From an uncultured Gemmatimonadaceae bacterium (GTDB lineage Bacteria; Gemmatimonadota; Gemmatimonadetes; Gemmatimonadales; Gemmatimonadaceae), in NCBI GenBank assembly GCA_963751275.1, contig CAVVTZ010000008.1, forward strand, positions 1-64,000: a stretch of 64,000 nucleotides of DNA, written 5' to 3'. Position 1 is the first letter of the stretch. Every line of letters begins with the position of its first letter. Made by a program: the position numbers and the translations under genes. Below the pieces are notes generated by a model. The model saw nothing but the letters and a program-made list of their open reading frames with translations, had not been told where the DNA came from and did not search any database. Positions 12,530 through 22,008 of this stretch are shown piece by piece.

Positions 12530-13865
12530 GTGCAGGGATCGTCCACCGGCGGCGCGCGCCCCGCGCCGCGTCCGGCAACCGGCCGGCTTGGCGTCCTCAC
12601 GCCGGGCCTCGGCGCGGTCGCGACGACCTTCATCGCCGGCGTGGAGAACGCGCGCCGCGGCCTCGCGAAGCCGATCGGCTCCCTCACCCAGATGGCGACG
12701 ATCCGCCTGGGCAAGCGCACCGAGCACCGCGCGCCGCTGATCAAGGAGTTCGCGCCGCTCAGTGCCATGAGCGATCTCGTCTTCGGCGCCTGGGACCCGA
12801 TCCCGGATGATGCGCTCACCGCCGCGCGCAAGGCGGGCGTGCTCGAGGAGCGTCATCTCGCGCCGATCGCCGATTTCCTCGCGGCGATCAAGCCGATGCC
12901 GGCCGTGTTCGACAACCACTACGTCACGCGCATCACCGGCACGAACGTGAAGACCGGGAAGACGAAGCGCGATCTCGCCGAGCAGCTGCGCCAGGACATC
13001 CGCGACTTCAAGGCGGCGAACAAGTGCGACCGCCTCGTGATGGTGTGGTGCGCGAGCACGGAGATCTTCATCTCCCCCGGTCCGGCGCACGCGACGCTCG
13101 CGTCGTTCGAGAAAGCGATGGCGTCCAACGACGAGACGATCGCGCCGTCGATGCTCTACGCCTGGGCGGCGCTGATGGAAGGCGTTCCCTTCGCGAATGG
13201 CGCGCCGAACCTCACCGTCGATACGCCGGCGTTGGTTGAGCTCGCGGGGAAGCAGGGCCTCCCGATCGCCGGCAAGGATTTCAAGACGGGGCAGACCTGG
13301 CTGAAGACGGTCATCGCGCCTGCGCTCAAGGCGCGCATGCTGGGACTCGCCGGGTGGTACTCGACGAACATCCTGGGCAACCGCGACGGCGAGGTGCTCG
13401 ACGACCCGCAGTCGTTCAAGACGAAGGAAGAGTCGAAGCTGAGCGTGCTGCACACGATCCTGCAGCCCGAGCAGTATCCCGGATCTCTACCAGGGATTCT
13501 CGCACGTCGTGCGGATCAACTATTACCCGCCGCGCGGGGACAACAAGGAAGGGTGGGACAACATCGACATCGTGGGCTGGCTGGGCTATCCGATGCAGAT
13601 CAAGGTGAACTTCCTATGCCGAGACTCGATCCTGGCCGCGCCGATCGTGCTGGATCTCGCGTTGTTCATGGACTTCGCGCACCGCGCGGGGATGAAGGGG
13701 ATCCAGGAATGGCTGTCGTTCTATTTCAAGAGCCCGATGGCGGCGCCGGGGCTGCAGCCGGAGCACGATCTGTTCATCCAGCAGACGAAGCTCAAGAACA
13801 CGCTGCGGCATCTCATGGGCGAGGAGCAGATCACGCATCTCGGCCTCGAGTACTACCAGGCGTGA
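12530..13865 (+). CDS. ino1: myo-Inositol-3-phosphate synthase (frameshift near 13485)
   Basis: GLGAVATT, PFANGAPN, GKDFKTGQT and NILGNRDG; C-terminus INYYPPRGDNKE, CRDSILAAP, SFYFKSP in 13509..13865. Confidence 0.93.
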
Positions 13866-13879
13866 CGCGCCCCTTCGCG

Positions 13880-14299
13880 ATGCGCCTCGCGGCGCTGGCG
13901 GCGGTGGTGTTCGTGGCCGCGGTGTGCGGCCAGCAGCAGGAGCCGCCGAAGGGGATGCCGGGCTACACCGATCATTACGCGATGCGCATCACGAGCGACC
14001 CCGCGCCGCCGCGCGCGCGGCAGCGCACCACGTTCAAGGTCGTCGTGCGCGACAAGGAGACGGGCGCGCCGGTCGACGGCGGGGAAGGGGTCCTGTACGG
14101 CAATACGAAGGACCCGAACGTGAAGGTATGGGACACGTTCGTCGCGGGCGCGGAGCCGGGCACCTACTACGCGAACGTGAACTACGTGGTCGCCACCGAT
14201 TGGGCGATGGGGGTGCGCTTCCGCAAGGATTCCACCCAGAAGCTCGAACAGGTGGACTGGATGCAGACCGTGAACAACGCCACCGGCGAGGCCCGTTGA
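13880..14299 (+). CDS. Secreted or lipoprotein hypothetical protein, possibly YtkA/FixH-like Ig fold
   Basis: Signal peptide MRLAALAAVVFVAAVC; beta-rich body with EPGTYYA; forms the 3' part of ORF 12530..14299. Confidence 0.6.
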   Translation: MRLAALAAVVFVAAVCGQQQEPPKGMPGYTDHYAMRITSDPAPPRARQRTTFKVVVRDKETGAPVDGGEGVLYGNTKDPNVKVWDTFVAGAEPGTYYANVNYVVATDWAMGVRFRKDSTQKLEQVDWMQTVNNATGEAR

Positions 14300-14301
14300 T
14301 C

Positions 14302-14595
14302 ATGCGCCACTTCCATCGCACGCACCTCGCGCCCGACGCGGCGCTCAAGATCGCCGACGATTTCTTCCCCACGATCGGCGAGGCGCGCACGTCGTCGCTC
14401 GCGCGGTCGCGCGCTTTCTCGGGACCGCTCGGCACCATGACGCTCAGGATCCGTCCCGACGGCGGCCACTACACGTTCATCGAAGTGGACACCGACCAGA
14501 CCGGCGAGAGCCGGCTCGACCGGAACGTGAAGCGCTATTTCGTGAAAGTGCGCAAGGCGGAGATGCCGGCGCGCGCGCTCGAGGCCGCCTACTGA
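14302..14595 (+). CDS. Small hypothetical protein (97 aa)
   Basis: MRHFHRTHL...LEAAY with host-like codon usage; stop overlaps the E1 alpha start. Confidence 0.65.
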   Translation: MRHFHRTHLAPDAALKIADDFFPTIGEARTSSLARSRAFSGPLGTMTLRIRPDGGHYTFIEVDTDQTGESRLDRNVKRYFVKVRKAEMPARALEAAY

Positions 14596-15733
14596 TGGCA
14601 TCCGGCGCCGCGCATCGCCTCTCCTCCGGGGCGCCCGCGCGCGACGCGGACCGCCCCTCCGCCTCGCTCTCGAAGGAGCAGAAGCTCCAGCTCTACTACT
14701 ACATGCGGCTCACGCGCTCGCTCGAGGAGCGGCTCGTCAACCTCTACCGCCAGACCAAGGTCGTCGGCGGGCTCTTCCGCTCGCTCGGCCAGGAGGCCGA
14801 CGCGGTCGGGCAGCGCCTTCGCGCTCGACCGGAGCAAGGGCGACTTCCTCTCGCCCGCTCATCCGCAATCTCGGCTCGATGCTCGTGCAAGGGCGCGACG
14901 CCGCTCGAGATCATGCGGCAGTACATGGCGAAGGGCGACTCGCCGACGCGCGGCCGCGAGCTGAACATCCACTTCGGCGACCTGCGAGCGCGGCTTCATC
15001 GGGCAGATCTCGCATCTCGGCGACATGGTGCCGGTGATGGCCGGCGTGACGCTCTCCTTCAAGATGCGCGGCGCAGGACCGCGTGGGCCTCGTGTACGTC
15101 GGCGACGGCGCGACGTCCACCGGCGCGTTCCACGAGGGGATCAACTTCGCGGCGGTGCAGCGCTGCCCGCTGGTGGTGATCGTCGAGAACAACGGCTACG
15201 CGTACTCGACGCCGCACGAGCAAGCAGACCGCGGTGACGCGAGCTGGACGACAAGGCGCTCGGCGTACGGCGTCCCGGGCGAGCGGCCGACGGCAACGAT
15301 GTGCTCGCGGTCGTACGACGTGACGAGGCGCGCGGTGGACCGCGCGCGGCGCGGCGAGGGCGTCACGCTGATCGAGCTGATCACGTACCGGCGCAAGGGG
15401 CACGCGGAGCACGACAACCAGAGCTACGTGCCGGCGGGCGAGATCGAGCGGTGGGAGCGCACAACGACCCGCTCGACCGCTACGTGCGCGTGCTGCTCGA
15501 CGAGCGCAGGCGATAGCGCGCGGCGCTCGAGCGCGATCGATGACGCGCGTGCACGCCGAGGTCGACGCCGCGACCGACTGGCCGACGCGTCGCCGATGCC
15601 GGAGGCGGACGATGCGCTCGCCGGCGTCTACGCCGATCCGCCGCGCGTCGGACCGCTCTGGTACCGCGGCGGCGTCGGCGCCGCCGTGGCCAGCACGAGC
15701 GCTCCGCCGGACTGGGGGACGCACGATGGCTGA
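14595..15733 (+). CDS. 2-oxoacid dehydrogenase E1 alpha subunit (pyruvate/branched-chain type), many frameshifts
   Basis: GQEA, TPP-binding GDGATSTGAFHEG...ENNGYA, and YRRKGHAEHD motifs. Confidence 0.88.
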
Positions 15734-16717
15734 GGTCACCTATCTCGAGGCGATCCGCGAGGCGCTGCGTCGAGGAGATGGAGCGCGACCCCGAGCGTCT
15801 TCTGCCTGGGCGAGGACATCGGCGCGCTACGGCGGCGCGTTCAAGGTGACCGAGGGCTGCAGGCGGAGTTCGGCGAGCACGCGGGTGATCGACACGCCGA
15901 TCTCGGAGGCGGCGATCGTCGGCGCGGCGGCGGGCGCGGCGCACATGGGGATGCGCCCCGTGGCGGAGATGCAGTTCATCGACTTCATCTCCTGCGCCTA
16001 CGACATGCTCACCAACTACGTGGCCACGTCGCGCTACCGCGCGATGCTCGCCGTGCCCGATGGTCGTGCGCGGGCCCAGCGGCGGCTACGTGCGCGGCGG
16101 GCCGTTCCATTCGCAGAATCCGGAGGCGGCGTTCCTGCACACGCCGGGGCTCAAGATCGTCTATCCCGGCGACGGCGCGAGCGACGCCAAGGGGCTGCTC
16201 AAGGCGGCGATCCGGGACGACGACCCGGTGCTCTACTTCGAGCACAAGTACCTCTACCGCCGGATCAAGGAGCGAGCATGCCGGCGGGCGATCACGTGGT
16301 GCGCCGATCGGCGAGGCGCGCGTCGGCGCGCGAGGGGACGCGACCTGTCGATCATCACCTACGCGGCCACGGTGTGGAAGGCGCTCGAGGCGGCCGAGCG
16401 AGCTGGAGCAGGAGGACGGGCTCTCGGTCGAGGTGCTCGATCTGCGCACGCTGCTGCCGATGGACGACGAGGCGATCGTCGCCACGGTGCGCAAGACCAA
16501 CCGCGTGATGGTCGTGCACGAGGACACGCGCACCGGCGGGATCGCCGGCGAGATCACCGCGCGCATCAACGAGCGCGCGTTCGAGTGGCTCGACGCGCCG
16601 GTGCTGCGCGTGACGGCGGCCGACGTGCCGCTGCCGTACGCGCCGCCGCTGGAGGACTACGTGCTGCCCCAGACGGCGGACATCGTGACCGTGGCGCGAC
16701 GGCTCGCCGGATACTAG
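15726..16717 (+). CDS. 2-oxoacid dehydrogenase E1 beta subunit, many frameshifts
   Basis: MAEVTYLEAI, DTPISE, EMQFIDF, FHSQ, FEHKYLY, DLRTLLP and LDAPVLRV motifs. Confidence 0.9.
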
Positions 16718-16718
16718 C

Positions 16719-17004
16719 GTGACGGCAGGGAGCGGGGCCGCCCTCGGTGCGGCCGAAGTGGTTCGCGATCGGATGCTTGATCGATGGTGCCGGGGTTCTT
16801 CGGCGGCGGCATGGTCGGCGCCGCTGGTGGCGAAGATGGTCGGCAGCGCGCGAAATTGCGCGCCGCCGGAGGGGATGCCGGCGTGCGATACGTGGAGTTT
16901 CGTGCTCGCCGGCCGCGGTGATCGGGATCGTGCTGTTGCCGTCGCTCGTGTTGTGGCGGCTGCGGCGGGGGAAGGATGGCCCAGGGAATTCAGCGCGGAG
17001 TTGA
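16719..17004 (+). CDS. Small membrane protein between E1 beta and E2 (frameshifted)
   Basis: Hydrophobic pieces [14 protein letters not shown]...[13 protein letters not shown] and [17 protein letters not shown] distributed across frames. Confidence 0.45.
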
Positions 17005-17008
17005 TCCA

Positions 17009-18381
17009 GTGGCACGCATTGATGTGATCATGCCCCAGATGGGCGAGTCGATCGCCGAGGGCACCATGTCGCGCTGGCTGAAGAAGGTCGGCGACGAGGT
17101 CAAGCGCGACGAGCCGATCTTCGAGATCTCGACCGACAAGGTGGACGCGGAGATCCCCGCGCCGACCGCCGGCGTGCTCGTCGAGATCCTGGTGACCGAA
17201 GGGCAGACGGTGCCGGTGCAGACGGTCGTCGCGCGGATCGAGACGGAGAAGGGGGCGGCCGCACCGGCGCCGCCGCGCCCGCCATCGGCGCCCGCCGCGC
17301 ACGGTGCGCCGGCCGCCGCCGCGCCCGCGCGCCGGCACGCGGCCGCGCGCCGCGACGCCCGCCGCGCCCGCCGCGCCCGCTGCGCCCGCCGGGTCCTTCG
17401 AGGAGCGCGTCCGCACGCGCTCCTCGCCGCTCGTGCGCAAGATGGCGGCCGAGCACGGGACTCGAGATGGCCGCGATGCAGGGCACCGGCATCGCCGGCC
17501 GCGTGACGAAGAAGGATCTGCGCGGTACCTCGAGTCCGGTGGCGCGGCCGCGCCCGCGGCGCGCTCCGCGCCGGCCGCGCCCACGGCGCCCGCCGCCCGA
17601 TGATGCCGCGCGCCCTCGATGCCCGCGCCCGCGGGCGCCGCGCCGCACGGCCCGCTGCCCGAGCCGTGGGCCGGCGATGTGGTCGAGCCGATGTCGAAGA
17701 TGCGCACGCTGATCGCCGAGCACATGGTGCTGTCGCGCCGCACCTCGGCGCACGTCACGTCGTTCTTCGAGATCGACTTCACGCGCGTCGCCCGCATCCG
17801 CGCGGCGCAGCGCGCGGCGTTCGAGCAGGCGACCGGCCAGAAGCTCACGTACCTGCCCTTCATCATCAAGGCGGTCGTGAAGGCGCTCAAGGACATTCCC
17901 GATCGTCAACGCGTCGGTGGCCGGCACGAACATGATCTACCGCAAGCAGTACAACATCGGCATCGCCGTCGCGCTCGACTGGGGCCTGATCGTCCCGGTG
18001 ATCAAGCACGCCGACGACCTCTCCCTCGCCGGGCATCACGCGCACGCTCAACGATCTCGCCGAGCGCGCGCGCGCGAAGAAGCTGCGAGCCCGACGAGGT
18101 CGCAGGACGGCACCTTCACCATCACCAACCCCGGCGTCTTCGGCTCGCTCATCGGCACGCCGATCATCAACCAGCCGCAGGTCGCGATCCTCGGCGTCGG
18201 CGCGATCGAGAAGCGCCCGAAGGTGATGACCGGCCCCGACGGCGAGGACGTGCTCGCGATCCGCACGTGCGCCTACTTCTCGCTCTCCTTCGACCACCGC
18301 ATCATCGACGGCGCGGTGGCCGATCAGTTCCTCGCCTTCGTGAAGCAGCAGATCGAGACCTTCCCCGACGCGGTGCTCTAG
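17009..18381 (+). CDS. 2-oxoacid dehydrogenase E2 dihydrolipoamide acyltransferase, frameshifted
   Basis: Lipoyl domain [11 protein letters not shown]...EISTDKV, E3-binding SSPLVRK...[12 protein letters not shown], and catalytic SFDHRIIDG. Confidence 0.92.
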
Positions 18382-18645: not shown

Positions 18646-18913
18646 TGCCCGTTCGCACGATCGTCGTCGGCGGCGACACCTGGGAAGTCGCGCCCGCGGG
18701 GCGGATCACGCAGTCCGACCGCGATGAATTCTCCCTCCTGTTCACGCGGCGCGTGGCCGGCGGCCGGCCGGAAGTGCGCGTGACGCGGTATTCGCCCCAG
18801 GGGGCGCGCGTGCGCGAAGCCTCCTTCGCGGAGCTGAGCGCCGCCGAACTCGAGCGCCTCTTCGGGAATCGCAGTCCAGCGAACGCTCGCCCGAGGCGGG
18901 CTACTCACGGTGA
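18645..18913 (+). CDS. Small hypothetical protein (about 88 aa, frameshift near 18865)
   Basis: MPVRTIVVGGDTWEV...YSP...; ATG overlaps the upstream TAA and the likely stop overlaps the PHP start. Confidence 0.55.
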
Positions 18914-19770
18914 CGGCCGCCGGCGGCGCCGCGCGCGTCGATCTCCACATGCACTCGACGGCGTCGGACGGCTCCCAAGCGCCCGCGGCCGTGGTCGCGG
19001 CCGCGAAGGCCGCCGGGATCGCCGCGATCGCGCTCACCGACCATGACACGCTCGCCGGCGTCGCCGAGGCGCGCGCGGCCGGCGAGACGCTCGGTGTGCG
19101 CGTGATCGCCGGCGTCGAGCTGAGCGCGGTGGATGGCGCCGGCGCCGAGGTGCACATCCTCGGGCTCCACATCGCGCGGCCCCTGCCGCTGCAGAACGCG
19201 CTCGATGTCTTCCGGATCGCGCGCCGCGAACGCGCCCTCCAGATCGTCGAGAAGCTGAACGCGCTCGGTGTGCCCGTCACGAAGGAGGCCGTGCTCGCGC
19301 AGGCGGGCGACGCGGCGATCGGGCGGCCGCACGTGGCGCGCGCGCTCGTCGCCGGCGGTTTCGCGCGCGATCACCGCGAGGTGTTCGACCGGTGGCTGGG
19401 TGCCGGACGTCCCGCCTTCGTCGAGAAGCGCCGCCTCACGATGGCCGAGGCGTTCGCGCTCATCCACGACGCCGGCGGCATCGCCGTGATCGCGCATCCG
19501 GGCCCGGACGGCACGCGCGACAAGCTCGCCGCGCTCGCGGCGCTCGGCATGGACGGTGTGGAGGTGCGTCATCCCGGCCACAGCGCCGCCGACACCGCGC
19601 GGCTCGCCGCGCTCGCCGGCGAACTCGAATTGCTCCCCAGTGGCGGTTCCGACTGGCACGGCGCGGCGGATGGCCCGCGCACCATTGGATGCATGAACGT
19701 TCCCGCGGAGTGGCTCGAGCGCCAGGACGCGCTCGTGCGCTCGCGCCTCGGCCCGGAGGTGGTGGCATGA
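18910..19770 (+). CDS. PHP-domain metallophosphoesterase (YciV/TrpH-like)
   Basis: DLHMHSTASDG, LTDHD, GVELS, HILG, GRPH, AHP and GGSDWHG motifs. Confidence 0.92.
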   Translation: MTAAGGAARVDLHMHSTASDGSQAPAAVVAAAKAAGIAAIALTDHDTLAGVAEARAAGETLGVRVIAGVELSAVDGAGAEVHILGLHIARPLPLQNALDVFRIARRERALQIVEKLNALGVPVTKEAVLAQAGDAAIGRPHVARALVAGGFARDHREVFDRWLGAGRPAFVEKRRLTMAEAFALIHDAGGIAVIAHPGPDGTRDKLAALAALGMDGVEVRHPGHSAADTARLAALAGELELLPSGGSDWHGAADGPRTIGCMNVPAEWLERQDALVRSRLGPEVVA

Positions 19771-20213
19771 CCGGCGACCCGCTCGCGATCGGCACGTACG
19801 CGCCCGCATTCGAGGCGCCCGCCAACGATGGGCAGCGATACGCGCTCACGGAGTTGCTGCAGCAGGGCGGCGTCGCCCTCTTCTTCTATCCCGGCAACAA
19901 CACGCCTGGCTGAAACAAACAACTCTCCGCCGTGCGCGATGAGATGGCAGCGTTCCGCAAAGCAGGTGTCCAGCCCGTCGGCGTGAACCCGGCGAGCGTG
20001 GAGAGCCACGCGAAGTACGCCGCGAAGTTCGCCTTCGGCTTCCCGTTGTTGAGCGATCCCGATCGCGCGATCGCGAAGGCGTATCACGCACTCAAGGAAG
20101 ACGGCCGCGGCATCCAGCGCACCGTGTATCTCATCGGGCGCGACGGGAAGATCCGCTTCGGCGAGCGCGGTGCGCCGCCGCCGGCCACGGTGCTCGCGGC
20201 GCTCGACCGGTGA
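19767..20213 (+). CDS. bcp: BCP/PrxQ-family peroxiredoxin with in-frame UGA at the catalytic residue (putative selenoprotein, 148 aa)
   Basis: FFYPGNNTPG-[TGA 19911-19913]-NKQLSAVRD continues in frame into ORF 19932..20213 (FPLLSDPD, QRTVYLIG); PxxxTxxC motif with C replaced by UGA. Confidence 0.85.
19923..19944 (+). promoter_or_regulatory. Candidate bacterial SECIS hairpin
   Basis: tctc/gaga lower pairs, cgc/gcg upper pairs, apical loop cgtgc about 17 nt after the UGA; folded by eye only. Confidence 0.45.
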
Positions 20214-20944
20214 CGTTCGCGCTCGCGGGGCGCGTGGCCCTCGTGACGGGCGCGGCCCGCCGCGTGGGCCGCGCGATCGCCCTCGCGCTCGCGGGGCGCG
20301 GGATGCGCGTGGCGGTGCACCACCACGCGTCGCCGGAGGAGGCGGACGAAGTCGTTCGCGCGCTGAAGGCCGCGGGCGGCGACGGCTGGGCCGTGCGCGC
20401 GGACCTCCGCGACGCCGCCGCGGCCGAGCAGCTCGTTCGCGATGTGGCGGCGCACTTCGGCGCGCTCGACGTGCTCGTGAACTCGGCGGCGATCATGCTG
20501 CGCACGCCCATCGACGAGGTCACCGTCGAGCAATGGGACGAGATCATGGCGCTGAATCTGCGCGCGCCCTTCTTCTGCGCGCGCGCGGCGGCCAAGGTGA
20601 TGGGCGAGCGCGGCGGCGCGATCGTGAACATCGCGGACCTCGCGGGACTCGAAGCGTGGCCCGCATACGTGCCGCACGGCATCTCGAAAGCGGGCGTCAT
20701 CCATCTGACCAGCGCGCTCGCGCGCACGCTGGCGCCGCACATCCGCGTGAACGCGGTGGCGCCCGGCGCGGTGCTCCTGCCCGAGAATTGGACGCCGGCC
20801 GACGCGGCGCGGATGCAGAAGACCACGCCGCTCGGCCGCATCGGGAGCCCGGAGGATGTCGCGCAGGCCGTGCTGTATCTGCTCGAGGCGGACTACGTCA
20901 CCGGCGACACGCTCATCGTGGACGGCGGCCGGCACATCCGCTGA
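20210..20944 (+). CDS. SDR oxidoreductase, pteridine reductase (FolM/PTR1)-like
   Basis: TGAARRVG, LVNSAA and RVNAVAPG motifs; the catalytic YxxxK position reads HGISK. Confidence 0.8.
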   Translation: MTFALAGRVALVTGAARRVGRAIALALAGRGMRVAVHHHASPEEADEVVRALKAAGGDGWAVRADLRDAAAAEQLVRDVAAHFGALDVLVNSAAIMLRTPIDEVTVEQWDEIMALNLRAPFFCARAAAKVMGERGGAIVNIADLAGLEAWPAYVPHGISKAGVIHLTSALARTLAPHIRVNAVAPGAVLLPENWTPADAARMQKTTPLGRIGSPEDVAQAVLYLLEADYVTGDTLIVDGGRHIR

Positions 20945-21015: not shown

Positions 21016-22008
21016 GTGGCCCGGACGCTCGACTACGACATCGTGATCATCGGCGCGGGGCCGGCGGGGCTCACCGCGGCGCTCTACGCGGGCCGGTCGA
21101 TGCTGCGCGCCGTCGCGCTCGAGAAGGGCGCGCCCGGCGGCGAGTTGCTCAACACCGAGAAGGTGGAGGACTATCCCGGCTTCCTGAGCGTGGACGGGTG
21201 GGAGCTCGCGCAGAAGTTCGAGGAGCACGCGAAGAAGTTCGGCGCCGAGATCGCGACCGGCGTGAACGTGATCGCGCTCCGGCGGCTCCACGACGGCACC
21301 TTCGAGACCGTGAGCGACAGCGGCGACATGTACCGCTCGCCCGCCGTGATCATGACCTCCGGCGGCACACCCGTGAAGCTCGGCGTGCCGGGCGAACTCG
21401 AGTTCGCGGGGAAGGGCGTCTCGTACTGCGCCGTGTGCGACGGGCATTTCTTCCGCGGCCACACGATCGCGGTGGTGGGCGGCGGCGATGCGGCGTGCGA
21501 GGAGGCGGACTTCCTCACGCGCTATGCCGAGAAGGTCTATCTGATCCACCGCCGCCACGAGTTCCGCGCGTCGAAGATCATCCAGAAGCGCGTCGCGGAG
21601 AACCCGAAGATCGAGGTGCTCTGGAACACGCTCGTGGAGCGCGTGGATGGCGATGCCGGGGGCCTCGTGCACAACGTGGCGCTCCGCGACGCGATCACCG
21701 GCGAGAAGCGCGGCCTGGCGGCCACCGGACTGTTCGTGTTCATCGGCTTCAAGCCGAACACCGGCATCCTGCAGGAGCACGTCCAGCACGACGCGTCGGG
21801 CTACATCATCACGGACCAGAACATGGCGTCGTCGCTGCCGGGCTTGTTCGTGGCGGGCGACGTGCGCGCGCAACTCACGCGGCAGGTGACCACGGCGGCG
21901 GGCGATGCCACCACCGCGACGATCGCCGCCGAGAAGTACCTGGCGACCCGCCGCGACCATGAGCGCGCCGCGGCCGCGGTGCACGGAGCGGTGGCCGTCG
22001 CGCGATGA
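21016..22008 (+). CDS. trxB: Thioredoxin-disulfide reductase
   Basis: IIGAGPAG, GVSYCAVCDG, VGGGDAA, HRR and AGDV motifs; GTG start after GAGGA. Confidence 0.93.
   Translation: MARTLDYDIVIIGAGPAGLTAALYAGRSMLRAVALEKGAPGGELLNTEKVEDYPGFLSVDGWELAQKFEEHAKKFGAEIATGVNVIALRRLHDGTFETVSDSGDMYRSPAVIMTSGGTPVKLGVPGELEFAGKGVSYCAVCDGHFFRGHTIAVVGGGDAACEEADFLTRYAEKVYLIHRRHEFRASKIIQKRVAENPKIEVLWNTLVERVDGDAGGLVHNVALRDAITGEKRGLAATGLFVFIGFKPNTGILQEHVQHDASGYIITDQNMASSLPGLFVAGDVRAQLTRQVTTAAGDATTATIAAEKYLATRRDHERAAAAVHGAVAVAR

Follow-up and report, generated by a model that had tools for sequence, protein, structure and literature searches.

An in-frame TGA at the catalytic position of a BCP-like peroxiredoxin gene from Gemmatimonadaceae is very probably read as selenocysteine

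The window, i.e. the whole stretch of 64,000 nucleotides analysed here, stems from an uncultured Gemmatimonadaceae bacterium and contains on its forward strand a peroxiredoxin gene that is interlocked with both of its neighbours. Inspection of the sequence showed that the ATG at 19767 overlaps the TGA stop codon of a PHP gene (ATGA). The frame is open from there up to its own stop codon (TGA at 20211–20213), which overlaps the GTG start of an SDR gene at 20210, just as the original prediction had described it. Within this frame, which reads FFYPGNNTPG-TGA-NKQLSAVRDE, lies an internal TGA at 19911–19913 that constitutes codon 49. The locus comprises the following features:

18910–19770, + strand: PHP-domain phosphoesterase gene, upstream, whose stop codon overlaps the start codon of the peroxiredoxin gene; conserved neighbour
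19755–19759, + strand: GGAGG motif resembling a Shine-Dalgarno sequence, within the 3' end of the PHP gene and 7 nt before the ATG; identified from the sequence, putative in function
19767–20213, + strand: peroxiredoxin gene of the BCP/PrxQ type, 148 codons, with one predicted selenocysteine (Sec) and no Cys (Pfam, NCBIfam, AlphaFold, Foldseek)
19890–19913, + strand: PxxxTxxU active-site motif (P42, T46, U49) with the in-frame TGA at 19911–19913 (alignment, orthologue conservation)
19923–19943, + strand: candidate core of a bacterial SECIS, CTCTCCGCCGTGCGCGAYGAG (silent-site freeze; weak predicted hairpin)
20118–20120, + strand: codon of the catalytic Arg118, invariant in the alignment and aligned to the Arg of 5enu
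20210–20944, + strand: SDR gene, downstream, whose start codon overlaps the stop codon of the peroxiredoxin gene; most similar to pteridine reductase, though below the cut-off; conserved neighbour
21016–22008, + strand: thioredoxin reductase gene trxB, two genes downstream (TIGR01292, 351.5 bits; cut-off 343.45)

Genetic code table 11 cuts the gene into two open reading frames (19392–19913 and 19932–20213), which is the division that the original prediction had noticed in its ORF track. When the TGA is translated as Sec, a product of 148 amino acids is obtained, and this read-through translation has zero Cys, as had been claimed. The product matches the Pfam family AhpC-TSA (PF00578) with 112.5 bits (cut-off 26). 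The best NCBIfam match was BCP (PRK09437) with 74.4 bits versus a cut-off of 140, and every NCBIfam cut-off was missed. An AlphaFold model, obtained from a 41-sequence alignment with C substituted for U, had a pLDDT of 95.6. Its top Foldseek matches were Bcp structures with TM-scores of 0.85–0.88, and AhpE structures reached fold scores nearly equal to those of Bcp. By sequence, the best solved relatives were BCP/PrxQ proteins (30–34% identity), and the closest named relatives (84–86% identity) belong to Gemmatimonadaceae. In an alignment with solved BCPs the TGA codon falls on the peroxidatic Cys (PKDNTPGC in 5enu), in agreement with the predicted position of the UGA on the Cys of the PxxxTxxC motif. 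P42, T46 and R118 were invariant in the 41-sequence alignment, R118 being the Arg of QRTVYLIG that had been described as conserved and intact. Judged by the NCBIfam cut-off and the active-site signature, the protein belongs to a divergent BCP-like branch and is not an equivalog of E. coli-type Bcp.

The surroundings of the gene were compared in a locus set from GTDB genomes. The PHP neighbour was matched at 34 of 45 loci and the SDR neighbour at 36 of 45, and trxB was present at all 33 Gemmatimonadota loci that had at least 1500 nt of downstream sequence. Between positions 14000 and 24000 we found no promoter-like sites and three terminator-like sites, the latter being as many as chance predicts. 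It is the overlaps between the genes that suggest an operon structure.

The original prediction was to be checked by a tally of TGA versus TGC/TGT among the homologues. To this end we used a first set of 61 related genomes, which includes the source genome (G000). In all of the 25 best orthologues (55–99% identity, three families) TGA is the catalytic codon, and each of them holds exactly one TGA. One of these orthologues (G012) comes from an unpublished genome, and the conclusions are independent of it. Five more loci examined in this set all carry TGC or TGT; they comprise four 2-Cys BCPs of the ordinary kind and L038, a divergent member of the subfamily. Another scan, of GTDB genomes, provided 45 loci, 33 with TGA and 12 with TGC/TGT, the latter from Gemmatimonadota (7), Vampirovibrio (4) and Neomarinimicrobiota (1). 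Five of the 33 TGA loci duplicate the first set, such that the distinct TGA orthologues amount to 53 in total, from Gemmatimonadota. No Cys whatever was found in 20 of the 25 TGA orthologues of the first set, the other five having scattered, unconserved Cys, and a Cys at +5 from the Sec occurred in none of the 53 TGA forms.

A search of the protein collection gave 428 matches; the best 120 of them comprised 44 fragments beginning just after the TGA and 76 long proteins. These C-terminal fragments contain no Cys at all, and U was recorded in none of the 120 matches. Among the 76 long proteins the strict active-site pattern was found with a catalytic Cys in 64, with Arg in one and with Ser in one. 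The pattern missed the remaining ten, and the six of these that were inspected all read PGC. The Arg and Ser at the catalytic position of P0056 and P0079 are each one base away from TGA or TGC, and these two records may represent errors or inactive copies. We also looked for raw sequencing data: among the 24 runs listed there was none of the source genome, no run containing more than 0.14 of the words, and no RNA run with the gene was listed. The gene is covered by contigs from 4 of these runs, which represent relatives of about 90% identity; among the differences listed, none falls at 19908–19951, an observation to which we give no weight.

The sequence that follows the TGA is unusually uniform. 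In the 25 orthologues the commonest codon accounted for 94% at the 9 conserved positions among codons +1 to +10 versus 67% at 61 conserved positions elsewhere (Mann-Whitney p of 6e-5, a value that is overstated as kin are not independent). The 21-nt core at 19923–19943 had no mismatch in any of the 33 TGA loci and 1–10 mismatches in each of the 12 Cys loci; the 7 Gemmatimonadota Cys loci had 1–4 mismatches despite a nearly identical peptide. The 21-nt stretch is thus constrained at the nucleotide level. It folds into a small hairpin with the predicted loop CGUGC (19931–19935), which starts 17 nt past the UGA and has G as the second and U as the third nucleotide. The model of the bacterial SECIS in PMC13188914 describes a loop of 3–9 nt, 16–37 nt past the UGA, with a G within the first two loop positions and a stem of −7.5 kcal/mol or lower. 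The predicted hairpin conforms to the spacing and loop-G rules of this model, and its energy, which depends on the stretch that is folded (−5.4, −6.5 for 27 nt and −7.6 kcal/mol for 31 nt), is borderline with respect to the limit of −7.5.

For the 27-nt hairpin a z-score of −1.49 was obtained, with 14 of 200 shuffles folding equally well, and the hairpin folds in more than one register. As the core is invariant, it provides no covariation signal. Long stretches past the UGA folded no better than shuffles (z of 0.33 to 1.42), such that folding energy alone is no proof of a SECIS. In the orthologue L021, which has three changes in the element, the hairpin still forms with CGUG in the loop. We infer that the 21-nt stretch acts as the SECIS of the gene.

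Decoding of UGA as Sec requires dedicated genes, and the original prediction had expected selA, selB, selC and selD elsewhere in the genome. For three of them this was borne out. A tRNA with UCA anticodon was detected by ARAGORN at C11:351797–351893, the sole one of its kind among 45 tRNAs found; it scores 73.2 bits on the Rfam model of tRNA-Sec and is located directly after selD (384 bits, a Cys form with CAGC). The selB gene at C4:18831–20658 includes the SECIS-binding wing domain and has one extra base at C4:19113, i.e. a frameshift, with respect to two genomes of the same genus in which selB is intact. The expectation did not hold for selA, for which the assembly (83% complete) gave no match. 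The gene is present in 4 of 5 genomes of the same genus. Of about 90 kb around selA in one genome of the genus (G005), only paralogue-level matches were obtained in the source genome, and valS, thrS, glyA, purH and eno from this region had no tblastn match. Since these hard-to-lose neighbours are absent as well, selA would lie in an assembly gap, and the region is probably unassembled. Within the window, several genes at 12530–13865 and 14595–18381 (presumably an inositol-phosphate-synthase-like gene and subunits of a 2-oxoacid dehydrogenase) are seemingly broken into separate frames, which suggests an assembly that is prone to indels.

The TGA form of the gene and the Sec machinery occur together. 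In the 25 TGA genomes of the first set we found selA in 22, tRNA-Sec (at least 63 bits) in 24 and the SelB wing in 24, with at least one of the three in all of them. Nine of the 61 genomes have neither selA nor the SelB wing nor tRNA-Sec, and none of these nine carries a TGA orthologue. A second set was composed of 28 of the 33 TGA-form genomes from the GTDB scan (the 5 duplicates being excluded) and of all 7 Gemmatimonadota Cys-form genomes. Here, selA was present in 26, tRNA-Sec in 24 and at least one of them in all of the 28 TGA-form genomes; in the Cys-form genomes selA and tRNA-Sec were each found in 0 of 7. The genomes of the second set come without completeness values and the 7 Cys-form genomes form a single clade, such that Fisher p values overstate the co-occurrence. 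Apart from the source genome, selA was missing in G040 and G054 of the first set and in 2 of the 28 TGA-form genomes of the second set. G040 (95% complete, 240 contigs) possesses the TGA gene, selB and selD; selA and tRNA-Sec gave no match in this genome, and a search for tRNA-Sec within 4 kb around selD was likewise negative. The selD gene of G040 (C95:16904–17830) has an in-frame TGA in an N-terminal GAG-U-ACK motif and itself encodes a selenoprotein, whereas the selD of the source genome has Cys. G055 contains the divergent Cys form L038 beside full Sec machinery.

Further candidate selenoproteins were sought in the source genome with a genome-wide screen based on codon bias and a hairpin filter. 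The screen returned 232 candidates, the filter having passed many obviously false ones at a GC content of 68%. Two of them were taken to family scans, and the selenoproteome remains incomplete. One, at C11:78509–79015 (+), encodes a Prx-like protein of 168 amino acids with the motif HRGFW-U-PNC (UxxC) and a Pfam AhpC-TSA match of 83 bits; its UGA is followed, at a distance of 21 nt, by the GGG loop of a strong hairpin. The other, at C7:343270–343518 (+), encodes a protein of the SelW/Rdx family with 82 amino acids and a CxxU motif, which exceeds the cut-offs of both NF041051 and TIGR02174 and likewise has a hairpin past the UGA. In many relatives we observed TGA-bearing, weaker matches to the peroxiredoxin query. 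Two additional sites in the source genome, C10:48913 (−) and C9:322964 (+), show an in-frame TGA flanked on either side by sequence of coding-like codon bias, with no nearby restart and no obvious redox motif; errors, gene borders or additional recoded sites could explain them.

From these data we conclude that the TGA at codon 49 is very probably decoded as Sec at the catalytic site, and that the locus is one intact gene, neither an error nor a pseudogene. The 1-Sec BCP/PrxQ without resolving Cys that had originally been proposed is supported by the conservation, the fold, the SECIS-like element and the co-occurrence with the Sec machinery. Alternatively, the TGA could be an erroneous base call or a recent nonsense mutation, or the locus could consist of two short genes; this would be in line with the apparent frameshifts elsewhere in the assembly and with the practice of public gene callers to record the C-terminal piece as a separate protein. 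This is refuted by the 53 distinct orthologues from independent assemblies that share the TGA within a frame that is open and conserved on both sides. The C-terminal piece, moreover, has no catalytic residue, and the subfamily also includes full-length Cys forms (55–70% identical), which prove that both halves are one protein, such that we give this explanation practically no credence. A nonsense pseudogene whose homologues all carry Cys is ruled out by the same orthologues.

The missing selA match and the frameshift in selB could also mean that the gene is a Sec gene by descent that is dead in this particular strain, with selA lost, selB broken and UGA stopping translation. The Sec machinery has indeed been lost in some relatives, namely the nine of 61 genomes described above. 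However, what has no orthologous match is the entire region of about 90 kb around the selA of G005, hard-to-lose genes included, and this stretch has probably not been assembled. The genome also retains tRNA-Sec, selD, the SECIS core and two other TGA genes in intact form, and one-base indels look like assembly errors in view of the apparent frameshifts in housekeeping genes of the window. We therefore regard a dead gene as very unlikely. We rate slightly lower still a recoding of the UGA that bypasses the route via SelA, SelB and tRNA-Sec, e.g. as Cys via a suppressor tRNA or through SelA-independent synthesis of Sec. The absence of selA matches from the five TGA-form genomes listed above and the thermodynamic weakness of the hairpin would be compatible with it. 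Yet the sole UCA tRNA is a standard tRNA-Sec adjoining selD, and of the TGA-form genomes 22 of 25 and 26 of 28 possess selA. In addition, TGA serves as an ordinary stop, since it terminates the peroxiredoxin gene as well as the two genes that overlap it, and the Cys-form genomes in which the machinery is lacking (0 of 7) carry TGC instead. The original prediction had held such a recoding in reserve in case the sel genes were lacking; it is not needed, since selB, selC and selD are present and the whole neighbourhood of selA is absent from the assembly.

With the TGA read as Sec, the ribosome would start at the ATG at 19767, and upon reaching UGA 49 the complex SelB-GTP-Sec-tRNA(Sec) on the in-frame hairpin would insert Sec such that termination does not take place. 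Judging from the chemistry of the family, the U49 selenolate, positioned by P42, T46 and R118, would reduce H2O2 or organic hydroperoxides and would thereby be converted to a selenenic acid. The general peroxiredoxin cycle has been described previously (PMC8113037). As the chain has no Cys, the selenenic acid would have to be resolved by an outside thiol. We slightly favour thioredoxin as the reductant, which would be recharged by the product of trxB two genes downstream; a low-molecular-weight thiol or another redoxin would be the alternative donor. In the source genome we found one clear thioredoxin and a single weak match to a glutaredoxin domain (25.9 bits); glutathione synthetase (TIGR01380) was not found in the 83% complete assembly. 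The presence of thioredoxin together with the negative search for glutathione synthetase leans towards a thioredoxin donor. The neighbourhood of trxB may just be old synteny. According to PMC8945050 most prokaryotic BCPs have no resolving Cys, and thioredoxin reduces the 1-Cys BCP of Burkholderia cenocepacia, although glutathione/glutaredoxin does so better.

That Sec-containing peroxiredoxins exist, as the original prediction had stated, is documented by a catalogued family. A selenoprotein family "Peroxiredoxin (Prx)" (PF00578/COG1225, TxxU or PxxxTxxU) was described with 43 genes from the Sargasso Sea (PMC1088965) and with 91 proteins in 78 organisms (PMC5029168), and it appears in Table 1 of PMC13188914. 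Our gene belongs to this known TxxU family. It shares with it the PF00578 domain, the PxxxTxxU motif, an in-frame UGA with a predicted downstream hairpin and, in the host, selB (with one frameshift in the assembly), selC and selD, and its UGA at the peroxidatic position is paired with Cys in the homologues; the stem energy of the hairpin is borderline, and selA gave no match in the assembly. It differs in that the SECIS core is identical across three families and in that the chain is free of Cys. Furthermore, the Cys forms in Gemmatimonadota appear to be derived from Sec, unlike the Cys-to-Sec changes recorded for the family in Table 1 of PMC1794560.

Among BCP/PrxQ proteins (comparison structures 5enu, 3drn and 5epf) the predicted protein resembles above all 1-Cys BCPs such as that of Burkholderia cenocepacia (PMC8945050), with about 150 amino acids, a Prx fold, a Pro-Thr-Arg site and no resolving Cys. 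In contrast to these proteins, Sec takes the place of the peroxidatic Cys, and the active site reads PGNNTPGUNKQLS versus the signature PKxxTPGCTxEAC. By analogy, the protein would work like a 1-Cys BCP equipped with Sec. We also considered PrxU (NF040737, peroxi_PrxU), which we take to be the Sec peroxiredoxin of Eubacterium acidaminophilum with Sec at the peroxidatic site. Membership was rejected: the score was 42.8 versus a cut-off of 270, the model having 233 positions and thus being much longer than the protein. The literature searched contained no description of the gene in Gemmatimonadota, and the supplements of PMC5029168, PMC1794560 and PMC13188914 may list Gemmatimonas selenoproteins or more cases of Sec-to-Cys changes.

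How the Sec and Cys forms are related was addressed with a quick tree of 140 rows and 148 columns in which the catalytic site was masked. The Cys forms were scattered among the Sec forms, corresponding to 9 changes, at least 3 of which are forced by starred branches. A monophyly test was carried out on 63 of the 140 rows, retaining 18 of the database proteins and excluding 6 long branches as well as 18 locus rows that were near-duplicates. When rooted on the Vampirovibrio-type 2-Cys proteins, these 63 rows rejected the Sec rows as one clade (p-AU of 2.5e-12). Most of the branches that split off first within Gemmatimonadota are Sec, at a support of 83–89% (not starred). The nearest outside relatives are the Vampirovibrio 2-Cys proteins (L098–L101), which come from a different phylum and have 44–47% identity. 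A second Cys is found at +5 in 18 Cys proteins of the Gemmatimonadota branch and at +6 in 3, nested inside 1-Cys clades. The +5 position is the classic resolving position, and its Cys would have arisen when TCC became TGC within what would be the former stem of the SECIS. TGC was verified at the DNA level for the 7-locus clade and L038, most other Cys forms being protein records.

We consider it moderately probable that the BCP branch gained Sec once, whereupon the SECIS became frozen, and that several reversions to Cys followed in lineages losing the Sec machinery, some of which added the Cys at +5. One gain with several reversions is the simpler history, because with repeated gains an identical 21-nt element would have had to arise each time. 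The decayed element in the Cys forms fits a reversion. In Table 1 of PMC1794560 five Cys-to-Sec and no Sec-to-Cys events are recorded for Prx, and PMC13188914 describes changes from Sec to Cys as rare events that are largely confined to FdhA and SelD.

The gene encodes a peroxiredoxin that is common across Gemmatimonadales and is publicly recorded as a catalytically empty C-terminal fragment (44 among the best 120 of 428 matches), such that the use of selenium is hidden in this group. As close Sec, 1-Cys and 2-Cys versions exist (55–70% identical), the benefit of Sec to a peroxiredoxin becomes directly testable, be it in the rate, in the resistance to over-oxidation or in dispensing with a resolving Cys. 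The frozen 21-nt element provides a clean, minimal candidate SECIS for a little-studied phylum. If the proposed history is true, these proteins would represent a natural series from 1-Sec via 1-Cys to 2-Cys, in a direction that is called rare in PMC13188914.
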